In this document: piece by piece, positions 8,768-17,776 of the stretch
Layout of the letters: every line of letters starts with the position of its first letter
How positions within the stretch are numbered: position 1 is the first letter of the stretch
The notes under the pieces: generated by a model
What the model was told of the DNA's origin: nothing
Database searches by the model: none
What the model saw: only the letters and a program-made list of their open reading frames with translations
Translations under genes and position numbers: made by a program
Source: an uncultured delta proteobacterium
GTDB lineage: Bacteria; Desulfobacterota; Binatia; UBA9968
Assembly: GCA_963816145.1 (NCBI GenBank)
Contig: CAWFJP010000030.1
Coordinates: 512,001 to 576,000, forward strand
DNA length: 64,000 nucleotides
Direction: 5' to 3'

Positions 8768-9841
8768 ATGGCAGAATTCATCATCGACGCAGACGGCCAT
8801 ATCATGGAAGACCACAAAGACATCTTCGCCCACATCAAAGGCAACTTTGCCGAGATGAACTGGCACTCCACCTGGCCGATGTTCGACGCCGACGGTTGGC
8901 AGCGCGGCTTGGCGCGCAAGGGCAAGCGCGAAGACCCCGACGCCGAGCGCTGGATCAACTTTCAAAACGAGCATGGCATCGACATGGCCGTGCTCTATCC
9001 GACATCGGCGCTCGCCTTGGGCATGATCCAACTACCCGCCTGGGCTTCCGCCCTGGCGCAGGGCTACAACGACTGGCTCTACGATCGTTTCATGACCCAG
9101 TCGCCGCGCTTGAAAGGCGTCGCCCTGCTGGCGCCGCAAGATCCCAAGGCCGCCGCCGCCGAACTGCGGCGCTGTGTCAAAGATCTAGGCTTTGTCGCCG
9201 GCCTGTTGCCGTCAGCGACGAATAATCGTACGCCGCTCTACGGCTCGCCGATGTTTCACGAAATTTACGACGAAGCCCAGAGATTAGACGTGCCGCTGAC
9301 GATCCACGGCGGCGTCAGCCAGAATCTCGGCCTCGACCGCGTCGCCAGTTTTCTCGAAGCGCATATGTTGGAACATCCGGTCGGCCTGTTTCTCCACATC
9401 ACCAACATGATGTTCCAGGGCGTGTTTCAGGAGTTTCCCAAACTGCGCGTCGCTTATCTCGAAGCCGGCGCCGGTTGGGTGCCGTTCATGATGGACCGCA
9501 TGGAAGAAGACTACGAAAAATTCGCCGCCCGCCTGGCGCCAAACTTGAAGCATCCGCCGAGCCACTTCTTTGAAAGCGGCAACATCTTCGTCACCATGGA
9601 AGTCGAAGAACGCACCGCCCCCTACGTCGTCAAACTGCTGCGCGACGACGTTATCATGTGGGCCTCCGACTTCCCCCACGAACGCGAGCGCGACCAATTC
9701 GGCGGCGACCTGCCGACGTTAAAAGCGCGCAAAGACCTGACCGATGAGTTCAGAAAGAAAATGCTCTGCGACAACCCGGTAAGATTCTATCGCTTGAGCG
9801 AAGGCGATATCGCCGCCGCAAGGAAGGCGAAGGGAAACTAA
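8768..9841 (+). CDS. Amidohydrolase family protein (Amidohydro_2; decarboxylase/hydratase-like)
   Basis: IIDADGH, LTIHGG, AYLEAGAGWVP, WASDFPH. Confidence 0.9.
   Translation: MAEFIIDADGHIMEDHKDIFAHIKGNFAEMNWHSTWPMFDADGWQRGLARKGKREDPDAERWINFQNEHGIDMAVLYPTSALALGMIQLPAWASALAQGYNDWLYDRFMTQSPRLKGVALLAPQDPKAAAAELRRCVKDLGFVAGLLPSATNNRTPLYGSPMFHEIYDEAQRLDVPLTIHGGVSQNLGLDRVASFLEAHMLEHPVGLFLHITNMMFQGVFQEFPKLRVAYLEAGAGWVPFMMDRMEEDYEKFAARLAPNLKHPPSHFFESGNIFVTMEVEERTAPYVVKLLRDDVIMWASDFPHERERDQFGGDLPTLKARKDLTDEFRKKMLCDNPVRFYRLSEGDIAAARKAKGN
9693..9792 (+). repeat. 100-bp direct repeat, copy 1 (3' part of the amidohydrolase gene)
   Basis: Matches 10658-10757 with 4 mismatches. Confidence 0.95.
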
Positions 9842-9866
9842 TTCTTAACGTCAATTCGATAATGCG

Positions 9867-9903
9867 ACAAAAAGGCGTCGTGGTTTACACGACGCCTTTT
9901 TGT
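9867..9903. terminator. Bidirectional rho-independent terminator
   Basis: ACAAAAAGGCGTCGTG-GTTTA-CACGACGCCTTTTTGT between convergent genes. Confidence 0.9.
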
Positions 9904-9980
9904 TTGGCTAACCGTACAATCGAGTTTCGAGCGAGGTATGGAAACTGCACACCCATGCGGGCGGGCTAGGCCCGGCTGAG

Positions 9981-10277
9981 CTACCCCAACGATAGCTCCA
10001 ATATCCGTCTCAGACGCTTCCCAATGGCTCGTTCAGCGAGCTTACGGTCGTAATCTCCCTGAAGATTGAGCCAATACTGCGGCGATTGTCCAAATGCGCG
10101 CCCAAATAACAATGCTAATTCGGCCGTCACCGGCCTCGTCCCCTTGACGATATGCGACACGCGCATCGGCGCCACGCCGATGACGCGAGCAAATTGCGCC
10201 TGAGACATTCCACGCTCCTCGAGGATCTCGCGCAAAAACTCGCCTGGATGAACCGGGGGCAAACCATTTTTAATCAT
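9981..10277 (-). CDS. higA: HigA family antitoxin (HTH-XRE)
   Basis: PPVHPGEFLRE...VTAELALLFGRAFGQSPQYWLNLQ; ATG 10277 with GGGAG RBS. Confidence 0.9.
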   Translation of the reverse strand: MIKNGLPPVHPGEFLREILEERGMSQAQFARVIGVAPMRVSHIVKGTRPVTAELALLFGRAFGQSPQYWLNLQGDYDRKLAERAIGKRLRRILELSLG

Positions 10278-10290
10278 AAAAAACTCCCGT

Positions 10291-10574
10291 TTAGTGATAG
10301 TCGACAATCGCTACATCGAAGGCATCCCCGTTCGCAAAGCGAAAGCAGACTCTCCATTGATCGTTGATTCGGATACTCCACTGTCCCTTCCGATCGCCTC
10401 TCAATGCCGCCAAGTGGTTAGATCGTGGCAATCTTAGATCGTCAACCCGAGTCACAGCGTTCAGTTGTGTAAGACGCATGCCGGCTCTTCAAAGGATATT
10501 TCCGGAGGAAAGCGACGAGAACGCCCCGTCGAATAGAATCTCTCAGTCTCCGAATCGGCAAACGACTGGATTAT
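10291..10574 (-). pseudogene. higB: HigB (RelE/ParE-family killer) toxin pseudogene
   Basis: N-part IQSFADSETERFY and C-part LRLPRSNHLAALRGDRKGQWSIRINDQWRVCFRF...VDYH lie in different frames; start position reads ATA; frameshift and TGA near 10490-10500. Confidence 0.85.
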
Positions 10575-10581
10575 TGCAAGT

Positions 10582-10610
10582 AGGATAAAAAGCCTGTTTA
10601 TGCCGGTCAA
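10582..10610 (-). promoter_or_regulatory. Sigma-70 promoter of higBA (leaderless)
   Basis: TTGACC-N17-TATCCT, 7 nt before the ATA at 10574. Confidence 0.7.
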
Positions 10611-10657
10611 GAAGGGCGCCCGAAAAACCTTTTCGGTGGGCGACATTAGAAATCTCT

Positions 10658-10757
10658 ACCAATTCGGCGGCGACCTGCCGACGTTGAAAGCGCGCAAAGA
10701 CCTGACCGATGAGTTCAGAAAACAAATGCTCTGCGACAACCCGGTAAGGTTCTATCG
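10658..10757 (+). repeat. 100-bp direct repeat, copy 2 (amidohydrolase fragment)
   Basis: Encodes QFGGDLPTLKARKDLTDEFRKQMLCDNPVRFYR, matching the C-terminus of 8768-9841. Confidence 0.95.
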
Positions 10758-10801
10758 TCTAAGGCTCCGTGTTCACAGTAGACCCTCATCATAAATCTAA
10801 A

Positions 10802-10861
10802 ACCTAACGTTTTGGGTGAGAGGCGCGGTCCGCCGCGTCCTTCTCCACTCATTGGTTAGGT
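10802..10861 (-). mobile_element. attC site (60 bp) closing the brnTA cassette
   Basis: ACCTAAC-CAATG-AGTGGAGA...TCTCACC-CAAAAC-GTTAGGT; R and L boxes with an extra G in L''; starts 4 nt after the brnA stop. Confidence 0.85.
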
Positions 10862-10865
10862 TTGT

Positions 10866-11141
10866 CTACCGCGTTTTGCTAAGACGATCAGCCATGCGCG
10901 ACTGCCAACCTGGTCCGGTTGACTTCCAACGCGCAATGACATCCACAGGAAGACGAATCGTGATGAGCTTGCGCGGGTTGGCGGATACAGGGCGACCGCC
11001 CTTCTTCAAGGTTGCACGCGAGAGCATTGCCGAAGTCAGCTCTGGCAATTCCACGTACTCCTTAGCTTTTATGATATGCGCGTCGACTCGCGTCAGGTCA
11101 GATTTTAAAGAGCGGCGCGATGCGCGTTTTTTCACGGCCAT
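10866..11141 (-). CDS. brnA: BrnA antitoxin family protein
   Basis: ELPELT...GGRP...ITIRLPVDVIARWKSTGPGWQSRM. Confidence 0.9.
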   Translation of the reverse strand: MAVKKRASRRSLKSDLTRVDAHIIKAKEYVELPELTSAMLSRATLKKGGRPVSANPRKLITIRLPVDVIARWKSTGPGWQSRMADRLSKTR

Positions 11142-11373
11142 TGGCTTTCCTCATGCTAAATATGTGTCGATCCTCGCCTCTCGGTGTGTACCCAATGACC
11201 ACCACTCGACCTTTCAAGAGTCCATAGCAAATGATCCGGGTCTCGCCATAGTCTTTGCGCGTGTCCTCAACTTCCAACGTCACGCCCTCAAAGACAATTG
11301 CCGCATCCTCAAAATCCAGGCCGCGAGTTGCAAAGGTCTTTTCGCGCTTGGCCGGATCGTAGGTAATGCGCAT
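11098..11373 (-). CDS. brnT: BrnT family ribonuclease toxin
   Basis: YDPAKRE...RGLDFEDA...DTRKDYGETR...IFSMRKANGRE. Confidence 0.9.
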   Translation of the reverse strand: MRITYDPAKREKTFATRGLDFEDAAIVFEGVTLEVEDTRKDYGETRIICYGLLKGRVVVIGYTPRGEDRHIFSMRKANGREKTRIAPLFKI

Positions 11374-11379
11374 TGAGTT

Positions 11380-11408
11380 ATTGTAACTACAACAACTGGC
11401 GTCGGCAA
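11380..11408 (-). promoter_or_regulatory. Cassette-internal sigma-70 promoter of brnTA (leaderless) with TTGTA-GT-TACAA operator-like palindrome
   Basis: TTGCCG-N17-TACAAT, 6 nt before ATG 11373. Confidence 0.75.
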
Positions 11409-11432
11409 GTGCTGTCTTTCACGTCGACAGCA

Positions 11433-11544
11433 ACCTAACGGGTCGGCGGGTGAACCGTGGCCCGCAGGGCCATCGGTTCCATCCGCTGGTTCGACCGCCG
11501 CAGGCGATCGCAACCAGCGTGGCTCACCCGCGGACCCGTTCGCA
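11433..11544 (-). mobile_element. Composite attC (long outer hairpin containing an inner attC 11433-11495 and an inverted, internally deleted copy 11508-11544)
   Basis: Outer GCGAACGGGTC...GACCCGTTAGG; inner GTCGAAC-CAGCG-GATGGAAC...GTTCACC...GTTAGGT. Confidence 0.65.
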
Positions 11545-11560
11545 CGACCGTCTGCGGTCG

Positions 11561-11619
11561 GGCGAACGCTTTGGGTGAGAGGCGCATTTGTCAGCGTCCT
11601 TTCAACCCATTGGTTAGGC
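11561..11619 (-). mobile_element. attC site (59 bp) closing the HExxH-protein cassette
   Basis: GCCTAAC-CAATG-GGTTGAAA...TCTCACC-CAAAGC-GTTCGCC; TAA stop of the upstream ORF lies inside the inverse core; similar to attC 10802-10861. Confidence 0.85.
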
Positions 11620-12246
11620 AAACCGCCTTTCGATCAAGTACTTAAAAAGTCTCTCAACCCAACCACTAATCTCATATTGCTTGAGCGCGTCAAGCCAACG
11701 AGTTTTCTGGAATTCGGGAGCCCAAAACGCATCCGGTTGTTGGAGATAGTCTTTCGCGCGTTCGCACACAGCCTCACTGCCAATCCTCTTCCCAAACCAC
11801 ACCTCCCTACGATGACAGAGTTTCTCGATTCGGACGTGCCGTGAGGAGGGATAACCAATTCCGAGGGCGTAGAGATGCGCGTGTGCGGTCTCGTGAACCA
11901 GTGTTGAGGCGATCTCCTCTACAAGAGTCGACTCCTTGCTGACATGCTTCTCGTCAAGACAACATAGTTTCAATGGCGGAAAAAATTCCCCCACTGCGGT
12001 GCCGAGCGGCATAATCAGGATACCGCGGACATGCAGCCGTAGCCGTTTGAGGCATTGGGGAGAAGCTGATGCCAAAAGATCCAGGGCATGGGAAAGTTTC
12101 TCTTGTATGGCCGCCCTCGATTCACAAAAGAGAAACCCGACCGGTACTTCGAGATACTCCTGCCTTGGCGCAAGCCGCCAAGCTACCCCCATGGCAACAT
12201 TGTAAATGGGATGACCGCTCGACTCCTGGGATTTATGCTGGCTCAA
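11614..12246 (-). CDS. Cassette-borne hypothetical protein with HExxH zinc-metallopeptidase motif
   Basis: 210 aa; IASTLVHETAHAHL with downstream E; fills the space between GTTAGGC at 12272 and the attC; TTG start, exact start uncertain. Confidence 0.7.
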   Translation of the reverse strand: MSQHKSQESSGHPIYNVAMGVAWRLAPRQEYLEVPVGFLFCESRAAIQEKLSHALDLLASASPQCLKRLRLHVRGILIMPLGTAVGEFFPPLKLCCLDEKHVSKESTLVEEIASTLVHETAHAHLYALGIGYPSSRHVRIEKLCHRREVWFGKRIGSEAVCERAKDYLQQPDAFWAPEFQKTRWLDALKQYEISGWVERLFKYLIERRFA

Positions 12247-12265
12247 ACAGATGCTCTCTCGTTTT

Positions 12266-12320
12266 GCCTAACCAATAGTATCTGGTTCCGTATAGAACTT
12301 CATAACTTCTGTATAGCACG
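12266..12320 (-). mobile_element. Putative attI site
   Basis: GTTAGGC core with no attC hairpin upstream; preceded by imperfect direct repeats CTATACAGAAG / CTATACGGAAC in AT-rich DNA. Confidence 0.5.
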
Positions 12321-12563
12321 ACTCAAGAAAAATGAGCCGGACATTTTTGGCGAAAGTACAAAACCTTATCACACTAAAGCAACTTATGAACGCGACAAAT
12401 GCCGAAAGGTCTTTCAGTATATTGAGACGCGCAGGCTAAGATTCGACCAGTATGATCCCCACGCTACCGGCCGGGCTACGTAGACTAGATCCCGGCAAAC
12501 AAAGGGTCTACTTTGATTACTATCTCGACTACTTCTTTCTCATCGCTCCGCAACCCACCCAGC

Positions 12564-13583
12564 CTACTTCAAACTCACCCCCTGCGCCGCGTAAGCCCGG
12601 TCAATGAAGCCGGATTCATCGAGCTTGCGCATGATGCGCGCGTCGATCACTTCTTCGGTTTTGATCTCGCCGATCTTCGGATTGCGGGTTTTGAGCATTC
12701 TCTGCACATTACGCAAACCATCCAAAGACGGGAACGGTTTGCGGTCGACGCCGTTTAATAAATCTTGATAACCTTCCTCCGCGTTGTTGGCGTTGGCCTT
12801 GAGTCTTTTCATAATCGTTTTTATCACCGTGGCTTTGTTCTTCGGCGCGACGGCAAAGGCTAATGCTTCGATCTCCGCCTTGAGATACGCCTCTACTACG
12901 TCGGGGCGTTGGCTGAGAAAGGTTTGCGGCACGACCATCGCCTGGCCGACGGTGCGCTGGGCGAGGTTGGCGGATTCGCCGAGAACCGTGAAGCCCTTTT
13001 GCCTGAGGATTTTGCTGAACACGCCGTCGAGCGCGGCGGCGTCGGCGATGCCGGTCTCGACGGCTTGCATCATGATCGGTTGATCGCCGAGCACCTGCAT
13101 GTTGATCTGATCGCGGGTTTGATCGAGGCCCAAATGTTCGAGCCAAAAGAGCACACCCATCCAGCCGGTGCCGCCGATACTATTCAACGCAATTTTTTTA
13201 CCGCGCAAATCTTCCGGCCGTTTGATGTTCGGCCGGGCGATGAGGTCATAGCTGTTGCGGCTGGAAAAAGTCGCGACGATCTTGAAGTCATGGCCCGCGC
13301 CGACCGCCGCCAGCGTCGCGCTGCCGCCGCTGCGGCCGAATTGGATGTCTCCCGATGCCATGCCGGCGACGAGCAGCGGCGCGCCGCGGACATAAACTTG
13401 GTCGACCAGGAGGCCGTTTCTGGCGAGAAATCCCTGCTCATCGGCAATCCACAAGGGCGCCACGCGGCCATTCATCGCAGCGTAGCCGACCACGACCTTA
13501 GTCAATGCCGTTGCGGCGAAAACGGAGCAGACTGAAATCAACCAGATCAAGACCGCATAAGCAAAAATTCTGCTGTGCAACAT
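12564..13583 (-). CDS. ABC transporter substrate-binding protein, NitT/TauT
   Basis: Signal peptide from ATG 13583; PLWIADEQGF; DLRGKKIA; KLDESGFID. Confidence 0.85.
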   Translation of the reverse strand: MLHSRIFAYAVLIWLISVCSVFAATALTKVVVGYAAMNGRVAPLWIADEQGFLARNGLLVDQVYVRGAPLLVAGMASGDIQFGRSGGSATLAAVGAGHDFKIVATFSSRNSYDLIARPNIKRPEDLRGKKIALNSIGGTGWMGVLFWLEHLGLDQTRDQINMQVLGDQPIMMQAVETGIADAAALDGVFSKILRQKGFTVLGESANLAQRTVGQAMVVPQTFLSQRPDVVEAYLKAEIEALAFAVAPKNKATVIKTIMKRLKANANNAEEGYQDLLNGVDRKPFPSLDGLRNVQRMLKTRNPKIGEIKTEEVIDARIMRKLDESGFIDRAYAAQGVSLK

Positions 13584-13624
13584 AGTCAGACCCCCATTGG
13601 ATAACGGCAGAGAGATCTTGCCGC

Positions 13625-14674
13625 TTACAGGATTCGGTTGAACCATAGGAGCGAGAGCAGCGCGGAGAGCAGCACGATGATTGCCGCTGCGGCGGCGAAG
13701 AGGGCGGTGATTTCCATGTCCTTCTTTTCCAATAAAAATTTGGAGTTGAGGGAGTCGTAGACTTTTTTAAGATCGGTAGCTGTGCCGGCGTAAAAATATT
13801 GGCCGCGGGTCAAGTCGGCGATCGCTTTGAGCGTTTCCTCGTCGAGGCGCACACGCATGGACCAACCTTCGAAGCCAATGGTCTCGCCGGCTTTCGTGCC
13901 GAATCCGACGGTGAAGACGCGCACGCCGCGGTCGGCGGCCATCCGCGCCGCTTCCATGGAGTCCGGGCCTGTGGTCCTCTGGCCATCGGTAAGCAAAATG
14001 ATCGCGGCAGAGGCGTAGGAGCCGGGCGCTACCGGTTTGAAGTCTTGCTTTTCCGCTTTGCCGGTCTGGTCGAGCGGCATGCCGCGTGGCGTGTAACGCC
14101 CGGAGCCGTAAATCAACGAGCTCACGTCAATACCAGCATCGGGAAAAATGGTCGCAAGTGAAACGATGATGCCGCTGCCGATGGCGGTGCCCCGTTGCAG
14201 TTGGAAGCGATCGATGGCGCCGATGATGTCTTCGCGATTATGCGTGGGTACCTGCACCACCGCCGCCGTTCCGGCGAAGGACACCACGCCGATGCGTACG
14301 TTGGAGGGTTGGTCGGCGACGAAGGCCTTGGCCGCGGCCTGAGCTGCGGTAATGCGATTGGGCTGGACGTCGACGGCGCGCATGCTGCCGGAAACGTCCA
14401 TGGCGAGGATGATGGTTTGGTATTGCGACGGCAGGGTGATCACGGCGGCCGGACGGGCGACGGCGACAAGCATTGCGATCAGTGCCAGCAAAAACAGCAG
14501 CGGCGGGATGTGGCGGCGAAATCTCTGGCCCGCGCCGATCGCTTCTTTCACCATGCTCAAACTCGCATATTTGAGCGCGCTCTGCTGCTTGCGGCGCAAT
14601 AGATAGAAATAGCCGGCCACCAGCGCCGGCACGACCAGCAGCAGCCAGAGCATCTCAGGCCAGAGGAACTTCAT
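13625..14674 (-). CDS. VWA domain membrane protein (BatA-like)
   Basis: N-terminal TM segments; MIDAS DVSGSM, TAIG, LLTDG; C-terminal TM. Confidence 0.9.
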   Translation of the reverse strand: MKFLWPEMLWLLLVVPALVAGYFYLLRRKQQSALKYASLSMVKEAIGAGQRFRRHIPPLLFLLALIAMLVAVARPAAVITLPSQYQTIILAMDVSGSMRAVDVQPNRITAAQAAAKAFVADQPSNVRIGVVSFAGTAAVVQVPTHNREDIIGAIDRFQLQRGTAIGSGIIVSLATIFPDAGIDVSSLIYGSGRYTPRGMPLDQTGKAEKQDFKPVAPGSYASAAIILLTDGQRTTGPDSMEAARMAADRGVRVFTVGFGTKAGETIGFEGWSMRVRLDEETLKAIADLTRGQYFYAGTATDLKKVYDSLNSKFLLEKKDMEITALFAAAAAIIVLLSALLSLLWFNRIL

Positions 14675-16834: not shown

Positions 16835-17776
16835 CTAGAACGGCGGCACGCCGACAGCGGTTGCAGCATTTTCAATGGGCACCGCAAAGCCAATGCCGAC
16901 AAAAAAACGCTGGTTCGTCGGATTAAGAATCGCGGTAACGATGCCGACAACCTCCCCCCGGGCGGTTACCAGCGGACCGCCGGAGCTGCCGGGATTGGCC
17001 GCAGCATCGAACTGAATGAGATTGGTCAGCAAGCGTTTCCCATTCGGGGAGAAAAACTCGCGGCGCAATCCGGAGACTACTCCAGCGCTCGCCGAAGGAC
17101 CTATACCAAAAGGATATCCCACCGCGACGACCTGATCGCCTATGGCAAGGTCCGCGGTGGAGCGCATAGTGGCCGCGACCAAATCGTCGGGAATCTTATG
17201 CGCCTGCAGCACGGCTAAATCATTCTCAGGCTGCGTACCGGTCACCGTGGCGTCGGATTCGAGCCCGTCAGCAAACACGACTTGCACCCGCTTGGCGCCG
17301 AACACCACATGAAGATTGGTCAAGATCACGCCCTTGTCGACGATCACGACGCCGGTGCCGACGCCCTTTTCGCTCTCTTCGCCGTTCTTGTTCGGTTCCA
17401 TGCGACGCACCCGGACGATCGACGGTCGAATGATCTCGTACGCTTTCGCCGCCGCGGACGGCAGAACATTGGTCTCGAGCGTGTGCAGCACCGCGGCGTT
17501 AATATCTTCCTGAGTGACCGGACGCGGCGCCGGCGCAAATACCCCGTGGGTCAAAACCACCAGTAGCGAGAGCAGCACGGCGGCTGCCAGCCAAAGCGGG
17601 CGTTCGTGGCGCGCGCAAAAGTTTCGCCAGCGCGCGCGGGGTTTTTGACTTGGAACTTTCGCCGAAGAACTGTCGTCGGATTGATCGGGCCTTGCGGGAA
17701 GATGCAGATCGGCCGTCGGCGCTGACCGGCGGGCAACCGATGAACGGCTGGAACTGTAAAGCGTAACTCTCTTCAT
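16835..17776 (-). CDS. Membrane-anchored trypsin-like serine protease (HtrA-like, no PDZ)
   Basis: TM anchor; triad TNLHVV, ENDLA, NPGSSGGPL. Confidence 0.9.
   Translation of the reverse strand: MKRVTLYSSSRSSVARRSAPTADLHLPARPDQSDDSSSAKVPSQKPRARWRNFCARHERPLWLAAAVLLSLLVVLTHGVFAPAPRPVTQEDINAAVLHTLETNVLPSAAAKAYEIIRPSIVRVRRMEPNKNGEESEKGVGTGVVIVDKGVILTNLHVVFGAKRVQVVFADGLESDATVTGTQPENDLAVLQAHKIPDDLVAATMRSTADLAIGDQVVAVGYPFGIGPSASAGVVSGLRREFFSPNGKRLLTNLIQFDAAANPGSSGGPLVTARGEVVGIVTAILNPTNQRFFVGIGFAVPIENAATAVGVPPF

Follow-up and report, generated by a model that had tools for sequence, protein, structure and literature searches.

An integrase-less integron cassette array that keeps its attI site in an uncultured Binatia genome

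Introduction

attC-site clusters without integron integrases (CALINs) are defined in IntegronFinder as two or more attC sites grouped within 4 kb with no integrase gene (intI) nearby. The survey of complete genomes that reports 279 of them places about half in replicons that also encode IntI and 15 near intI pseudogenes, and it raises as a speculation that a remote integrase might still excise CALIN cassettes (Cury et al., 2016, Nucleic Acids Res 44:4539, PMC4889954). The attI search of IntegronFinder is limited to classes 1-3, so that CALINs are normally defined without an attI. Here we analyse an array of this kind in a 64-kb stretch of DNA, called the window throughout (positions 512,001 to 576,000 of contig CAWFJP010000030.1, or C30, of 620,955 bases), from an uncultured delta proteobacterium of the Binatia (assembly GCA_963816145.1, labelled G000; 31 contigs, 7.8 Mb). 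The locus consists of an attI followed by three cassettes on the minus strand (Table 1), and it is very probably a decayed chromosomal integron, now a CALIN, which would have lost its integrase and whose cassettes may have been exchanged in trans.

With three attC sites inside 820 nt and no intI nearby, the locus falls within the definition of a CALIN, and it further resembles described CALINs in carrying cassettes of unknown function together with a toxin-antitoxin pair, and in having complete integrons elsewhere in the genome. Unlike a typical CALIN, it keeps an attI that is recognisable by homology, and an intI pseudogene was not detected beside it. An 'inverted' layout of integrase and cassettes is known from Treponema and other bacteria (PMC4889954). 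Both integrase genes on contig C15 of this genome likewise lie on the strand of their ~24 attC sites, and the layout of the window attI matches; the window differs from such inverted integrons in having no integrase, and its host is an uncultured lineage.

Toxin-antitoxin cassettes are reported from sedentary chromosomal integrons (Richard et al., 2024, PLoS Genet, PMC11023631), and the window similarly holds a full brnTA pair as one cassette with its own promoter-like site. In contrast to sedentary chromosomal integrons, the array has just three cassettes, and a stabilising role for brnTA would be assigned by analogy with that literature. Integron cassettes without an open reading frame (ORF) have also been described (PMC6557892, PMC11014356). 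Cassette 2 of the window is like them in having no ORF, in being bounded by crossover points and in being mobile; judged against the abstracts of those papers, it differs in being only 128 nt long and in being built from an attC and an inverted partial copy of that attC. Finally, insertion by attC x attG recombination is reported to put cassettes outside integrons (bioRxiv 10.1101/2022.09.11.507474). This route to integrase-less cassettes fits a solitary copy of cassette 2 on contig C3, whereas the window array begins at a homologous attI and not at an arbitrary site.

The element is real and well supported, and it is no new kind of element, given that CALINs, toxin-antitoxin cassettes and ORF-less cassettes are already known. 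The locus contributes a recognisable orphan attI, a hint from a sister species that cassettes turned over after the integrase was lost, a cargo-free palindromic cassette and the host lineage. The analysis documents integrons (two intI genes, ~24 attC sites and several orphan arrays) in a little-studied soil lineage, for which a full-text literature search for 'Binatia' with 'integron' returned zero papers. The practical consequence is modest: annotation pipelines that require intI in cis would overlook the array.

attC sites and cassette junctions

A covariance model (R1) was built from 10 attC sites located beside the two intI genes on C15, with zero window sequence in its training set, and was run, its filters switched off, on both strands of the entire 64 kb. 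Three sites were matched, all on the minus strand: the attC of cassette 3 (attC3; 34.2 bits, E 4.6e-6), that of cassette 1 (attC1; 32.3 bits, E 1.3e-5) and that of cassette 2 (attC2; 27.1 bits, E 2.4e-4). The best remaining score in the window was 16 bits (E 0.1), for an unrelated minus-strand stretch at 17339-17423. Because R1 held no window sequence and nothing exceeded 16 bits in the other ~62 kb, the likeness of the window sites to attC is above chance.

The predicted folds have the expected architecture. The RNAalifold consensus of the ten C15 attC sites comprises a 7-bp R box, a 3+4-bp L box and a one-base bulge, and in the bottom strands of the window sites an unpaired spacer separates the R box from an L stem whose 3' arm carries extra bases. 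The fold of attC3 (10861-10802; -15.3 kcal/mol, z -4.8, equalled by 0 of 200 shuffles) combines an R box of 7 bp and a 4/3-nt bubble with an L stem from whose 3' arm three bases (T, T and C) bulge out. The fold of attC2 (11495-11433) has a z of -3.3. In attCaadA7 the extrahelical bases are T and G.

On its top strand an attC site opens with R'' (consensus RYYYAAC) and closes with R' (consensus GTTRRRY). The window sites carry the pairs GCCTAAC/GTTCGCC, GTCGAAC/GTTAGGT and ACCTAAC/GTTAGGT, where one R' has C in place of the expected R. Integron integrases cut between the G and the TT of R', and therefore the first six bases of a cassette (TTRRRY) should complement the R'' of its own attC and not that of the preceding one. 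This junction rule is obeyed by all three cassettes. GTTAGGC (12272) is complementary to GCCTAAC (11619) at 7/7 positions and GTTAGGT (11439) to ACCTAAC (10861) at 7/7, while GTTCGCC (11567) is complementary at 6/7 to either GTCGAAC (11495) or TGCGAAC (11544). The rule also holds along most of the C15 array.

The two short attC sites, of 59 and 60 nt, share 81% identity over 37 nt and 88% over 17 nt. Near copies of the 60-nt site (80-100% identity) occur in at least 19 other genomes among the 31 of the same genus that were compared (labelled with G-numbers), a lower bound, as 9 candidates were scored per genome; some of these copies share a contig with intI, e.g., in G012:C72 and G018:C6. These distributions support a lineage-specific type of attC to which the window sites would belong. 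In G000 itself, further copies of the 60-nt site lie at C5:179657-179716, C14:445516-445575 and C14:207807-207866, all of them integrase-less sites. The corresponding integrase-less attC clusters span C14:443047-445575 (3 sites), C14:207807-209747 (2 sites) and C5:179657-179716 (1 site). The whole-genome scan with R1 scored 150 of 5388 first-look candidates, the window sites not being among them, and is thus not a census. A script that combined motifs with ViennaRNA folds gave 194 noisy sites genome-wide and missed those of the window itself; it was replaced by the covariance model.

An initial annotation of the window had proposed most of this arrangement, and every element it named was found on the minus strand at its proposed place. 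The HExxH cassette with a stop inside GCCTAAC was recovered (ORF to 11614, GCCTAAC at 11619-11613), as were the 59-bp and 60-bp attC sites and a brnTA cassette matched by both protein families, and the proposals that the two short sites are close relatives and represent a lineage-specific type were borne out by the identities and near copies given above. The annotation had made its case depend on covariance-model matches and on R/L box geometry in the folds, and both were found.

The attI site and the missing integrase

Upstream of cassette 1 the initial annotation had placed an 'attI-like' site. The site is present, with its crossover core GTTAGGC at 12272-12266, and 'like' proved too weak a word, since the region is homologous to an attI that lies beside intI. 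It contains two conserved blocks, 12393-12430 and 12265-12325, and three conserved direct repeats, TATAC(A/G/T)GAA, which are candidate integrase binding sites. In BLAST comparisons, 12266-12296 and 12393-12430 matched the DNA immediately 3' of the intI1 stop on C15 (87% identity over 31 nt and 79% over 38 nt); the two matches keep their order there, and the spacing between them is similar. The blocks recur at eight other loci of the genus, with the core block at 84-94% identity and, in two loci, the core block alone. Alignment of eight loci revealed that identity continues through TATACGGAACCAGATAYTATTGGTTAGGC and then ends at once in every row, i.e., straight after GTTAGGC in 8 of 8. No hairpin is predicted in the region (fold z +0.5 and -0.4), as expected for attI, which works as a duplex. 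Judged by this homology, the upstream site is best regarded as a true attI.

Ten attI-type loci were examined, including that of the window. A full intI adjoins the attI in two of them (C15 of G000 and C347 of G005, an unpublished genome), a 3' stub of intI adjoins it in two more (the last 39 codons in G017:C34 and the last 21 in G037:C59), and a significant trace of intI is absent from the remaining six, the window and G002:C869 among them. In four of seven further loci, attC matches follow the attI in the same orientation. Similarity among the integrase-less attI loci sets in at the first conserved attI repeat or a few bases ahead of it. These loci may reflect either repeated deletions or relocations of an attI-array module.

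There is no intI beside the window attI, and the locus is accordingly not a complete integron. Furthermore, none of the 11 TIGR02249 or 12 PF00589 matches in the genome, which would mark a tyrosine recombinase, lies anywhere on the 620,955 bases of C30. The spacer in which the 3' end of intI would be expected (12431-12563) is conserved at 91% in G002:C869.

Integrases are encoded elsewhere in the assembly. Contig C15 carries two full-length intI genes without internal stops (TIGR02249 cut-off 265; scores 468 and 466 bits), at 184021-185112 and 202184-203359, both on the minus strand and 18 kb apart. On C15, R1 gave 26 matches at E <= 0.05, which correspond to ~24 distinct minus-strand sites between and downstream of the integrases (175000-203400). 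The integrases share the orientation of their own cassettes, with attI just 3' of the intI stop, and the window type of attI adjoins intI1 only, not the second gene. Within the genus, intI above the family cut-off is present in 9 of 31 genomes. The nearest public relatives of the integrases (79-90% identity) come from metagenome-assembled genomes titled Candidatus Binatia, delta proteobacterium, Eisenbacteria, Acidobacteria, Acidiferrales and Verrucomicrobia. The initial annotation had called the locus a CALIN, either a relic or one serviced in trans, and had advised a search of the genome for IntI and for more copies of the attC; the lack of a recombinase on C30, the two intI genes on C15 and the attC copies on C5 and C14 and in other genomes of the genus support its view.

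The ORF-less 128-nt cassette

Cassette 2 folds into a near-palindromic branched hairpin (11544-11437) of -46 kcal/mol on either strand (z about -7 to -8). The 3' half of the cassette (11495-11433) is an attC that shares its type with the two short sites, and in our reading the 5' half would repeat part of this attC in inverted orientation, so that the unit as a whole is palindromic. The cassette had at first been described as ORF-less with a 'composite attC'. An ORF-less unit is indeed present (11566-11439), and its structure is better expressed as a mobile 128-nt cassette with one attC and an inverted partial copy than as a composite site.

The unit occurs four times in 7.8 Mb at 93-98% identity: once in the window, twice in the intI-linked arrays of C15 and once, alone, on C3. 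When the four copies are aligned, CGTT marks the start of identity and CCGTT its end, and the flanks all differ. With these boundaries the unit behaves like a discrete cassette, apparently moved via G|TT crossovers. The solitary copy (G000:C3:325613-325745) has no other attC match within 15 kb and may have been inserted into the genome at a site other than an attI. An empty site for this copy was not found in the relatives, where its flanks lie on separate contigs.

Cassette turnover and alternative explanations

The locus has a counterpart in one relative. In G002:C869 the orthologous junction of gene, spacer and attI is conserved at 91-93% identity, with GTTATGC at the crossover, and one base past the crossover G002 diverges into an unrelated cassette that encodes an Imm26-family immunity protein (PF15428, 1.6e-7; locus positions 1-258); this cassette has zero matches in G000. 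Since both genomes already lack intI at the shared junction, at least one insertion or excision of a cassette at this attI would most simply post-date the loss of the integrase. The four-copy ORF-less cassette with its G|TT breaks and the differing first cassette of G002 together suggest that an integrase acted on the locus in trans. The G000/G002 comparison thereby offers a concrete, testable case for trans-acting integrases that keep orphan arrays alive. The flanking genes are also present in G003, G017, G007 and G004, and neither attI nor attC was found between or beside them there; in G003 the gap holds a gene for a thiamine-pyrophosphate enzyme. As these four loci are without attI and attC, the platform is specific to the G000/G002 branch and not ancestral to the whole genus.

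The following sequence of events would account for the locus. Integron integrases would have cut the bottom strand of attC, in its folded form, between G and TT and thereby created the junctions; intI would then have been lost beside the window attI. Thereafter the integrases of C15, or those of incoming elements, may have kept exchanging cassettes in trans. The brnTA cassette may help to protect the array from deletion, and expression of cassette 1 would rely on upstream read-through or on an unmapped promoter in attI.

Several observations weigh against this account. The loss of intI is deduced from the homology of attI and from the partial remnants at other loci and is not seen directly: a tblastn search of IntI1 against window positions 9000-14000 gave a best alignment of 15 aa at E 6.6, and the best local DNA alignment to intI was equalled by 24-34 of 500 shuffles, so a remnant is not claimed. 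Excision was not seen directly either, as no contig that skips a cassette was present in four metagenome DNA runs, whose uncovered parts prove nothing (20-39% of the sampled words are shared by these runs). The contig of G002 stops 270 nt past attI, inside the first cassette, and its array is known from that start alone. Taken by itself, attC1 (11619-11561) folds weakly (z -1.9, equalled by 6 of 200 shuffles), as expected from its hybrid R box. Rfam matched zero families in the window at gathering thresholds and, between 9800 and 12800 at E <= 10, RefA9 alone, leaving the attC sites unmatched; the presence of attC in Rfam is itself uncertain. Lastly, with an estimated contamination of 6.7%, it is not proven that C15, which bears the integrases, and C30, which bears the window, derive from one cell. 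Their shared cassettes and equal GC (0.565 and 0.560) argue that they do.

A wider reading builds on the finding that six of the ten attI loci have no trace of intI and two have a stub only. According to this reading, which we put forward tentatively and consider somewhat improbable as it stands, the integron of the genus would be a distributed system, in which conserved attI platforms with their arrays, dispersed over the chromosome and lacking an integrase, would go on gaining and losing cassettes by means of one or two remote integrases. The window would then be a live satellite, and the 128-nt palindrome a selfish, cargo-free cassette that spreads among platforms and ordinary genomic sites.

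The most serious alternative to a locus serviced in trans is an inert fossil, i.e., a true integron relic that has undergone no recombination since it lost intI. The shared cassette and the difference between G000 and G002 would then be older than the loss, or stem from independent losses or from homologous recombination between copies of attI or attC. The metagenome runs fit such a relic, in that no contig skips or rearranges a cassette, and the divergence of the window copy of the 128-nt unit from the other three (2-7%) indicates that its insertion is not very recent. In addition, attI copies at 84-94% identity are present at several loci and could recombine homologously, and exchange between them would be another route to the difference between the two genomes. 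However, the integrase-less junction is shared by G000 and G002 up to GTTAGGC/GTTATGC and diverges fully one base later, which is the exact cut point of the integrase; the conserved attI core of ~55 nt is ill suited to homologous recombination; and the genome has two intact intI genes. On balance we regard an inert fossil as unlikely.

A distant integrase might also have put the cassettes into an attG-type site that was never an attI, in which case no platform would have existed at this locus. Such insertions are reported (bioRxiv 10.1101/2022.09.11.507474), and the solitary cassette on C3 resembles one. However, the 165 nt that precede cassette 1 are homologous to the attI beside intI1 and to that of other loci in the genus, which a random target would not be, and this origin is therefore highly improbable.

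Misjoining of the array to this chromosomal region during assembly or binning is very improbable; in its favour are the 31-contig state of the assembly and its estimated contamination. The array lies 10 kb into the window, within a 621-kb contig and between core genes, the junction of gene and attI is the same in G002, and short contigs from the metagenome runs span the junctions at 12272, 11567 and 10808, differing at 0-1 positions. The last of these points is not independent support, as the bridging contigs perhaps come from the sample behind the assembly.

That the locus is not an integron at all, its hairpins being generic palindromes of the REP or MITE kind or chance inverted repeats among small genes, is scarcely credible. 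In its favour, the 128-nt unit is an almost perfect palindrome with equal folds on the two strands and is multi-copy like REP, and a 14-nt inverted repeat encloses the region. Against it, attC arrays hold 3 of the just 4 copies of the unit in 7.8 Mb, the junction rule is obeyed in 3 of 3 cases, and the idea is refuted in practice by a model from intI-linked attC sites that matches only these sites in the window, by the attI alignment and by the breakpoints of the four-copy cassette.

Cassette contents

The ORF of cassette 1 encodes a protein of 192-210 aa with an invariant HExxH, and its TAA stop (11616-11614) sits in GCCTAAC (11619-11613), i.e., in R''. No Pfam family matched the protein. A collection of 5.8 billion proteins yielded 22 homologues, all of them unnamed or called 'hypothetical protein'. 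A C-terminal motif is shared by 12 of 12 aligned homologues and reads exactly ...RRFA in 10 of the 12, which fits a stop codon fixed inside R''. The AlphaFold model has a mean pLDDT of 77. Comparison of this model with the PDB gave zero chains at E <= 0.001, the best being 8s5f, an oxygenase HExxH domain (E 0.29, TM 0.46). This family of 22 members and the cargo-free cassette are both candidates for functional study.

Cassette 3 encodes a predicted type II toxin-antitoxin pair, with BrnT at 70.3 bits against PF04365 (cut-off 34.5) and BrnA at 47.8 bits against PF14384 (cut-off 26.1); the two genes overlap by 44 nt. The cassette probably has its own promoter, as a promoter-like site (TTGCCG-17-TACAAT, 11408-11380) lies just upstream of brnT, though the regional count of such sites is not above chance. 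A homologue of brnTA at 71% in G009:C176 is likewise placed between two attC matches.

Organisation of the locus and neighbouring features

Table 1. Features of the integrase-less array and its borders in the window
Feature	Position	Strand	Remarks
Substrate-binding-protein gene, NMT1-type	12564..13646	-	Stop at 12564; upstream edge of the locus
Spacer, 133 nt, from stop of substrate-binding-protein gene to attI	12431..12563	-	Expected place of the 3' end of intI
attI region, 165 nt	12266..12430	-	BLAST homology; crossover core GTTAGGC at 12272-12266
Cassette 1, 705 nt, orphan HExxH protein	11567..12271	-	ORF 12192 (or 12246)..11614
attC of cassette 1, 59 nt	11561..11619	-	R'' GCCTAAC, R' GTTCGCC; model R1
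Cassette 2, 128 nt, ORF-less, GC 0.72	11439..11566	-	attC and putative inverted partial copy
attC of cassette 2, 63 nt	11433..11495	-	R'' GTCGAAC, R' GTTAGGT; model R1
Cassette 3, 631 nt, brnTA	10808..11438	-	PF04365 and PF14384
brnT	11373..11098	-	PF04365, 1.7e-19
brnA	11141..10866	-	PF14384, 1.9e-12
attC of cassette 3, 60 nt	10802..10861	-	R'' ACCTAAC, R' GTTAGGT; model R1
Distal 44 nt, abutting a duplicate of part of the amidohydrolase 3' end (10658-10763)	10764..10807	-	Origin without match

The initial annotation had ended the array with a truncated cassette. The distal 44 nt, which would correspond to it, have zero matches in the 31 genomes of the genus; they are possibly the start of a lost fourth cassette, but this stays a guess. 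Beyond the three junctions named above, one metagenome contig spans 10448-10832 with 0 differences. The single odd joint in the four runs, which skips 77 nt inside brnT and has 25 nt on its shorter side, is too weak for use.

The 14-nt inverted repeat (13/14 complementary) lies at 10773-10786 and 12503-12516 and encloses attI and the entire array. A target-site duplication is not visible beside it, and the repeat may be due to chance, as 38 inverted pairs of at least 12 nt were found in the 3 kb scanned.

The neighbouring amidohydrolase gene probably has an intrinsic terminator just past its stop, where a T run follows a perfect inverted repeat of 16 bp (9867-9903). The RefA9 match falls on this terminator with 29 bits against a cut-off of 49 and is regarded as spurious.

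A higBA module is located at 9693-10757, with higA at 9981..10307 and a frameshifted higB in two parts, 10461..10646 and 10291..10479. It is flanked by two 100-bp direct repeats of the amidohydrolase 3' end (9693-9792 and 10658-10757; 96% identity). The same 3' end is also tandemly copied in G036:C192, G006:C251 and G040:C42, and between the copies in the first two of these contigs are ORFs which, by reading and without a family search, were taken as RelE/ParE-like and PIN (VapC)-like toxin-antitoxin modules. The region of the amidohydrolase 3' end thus looks like a hot spot at which small modules pile up.

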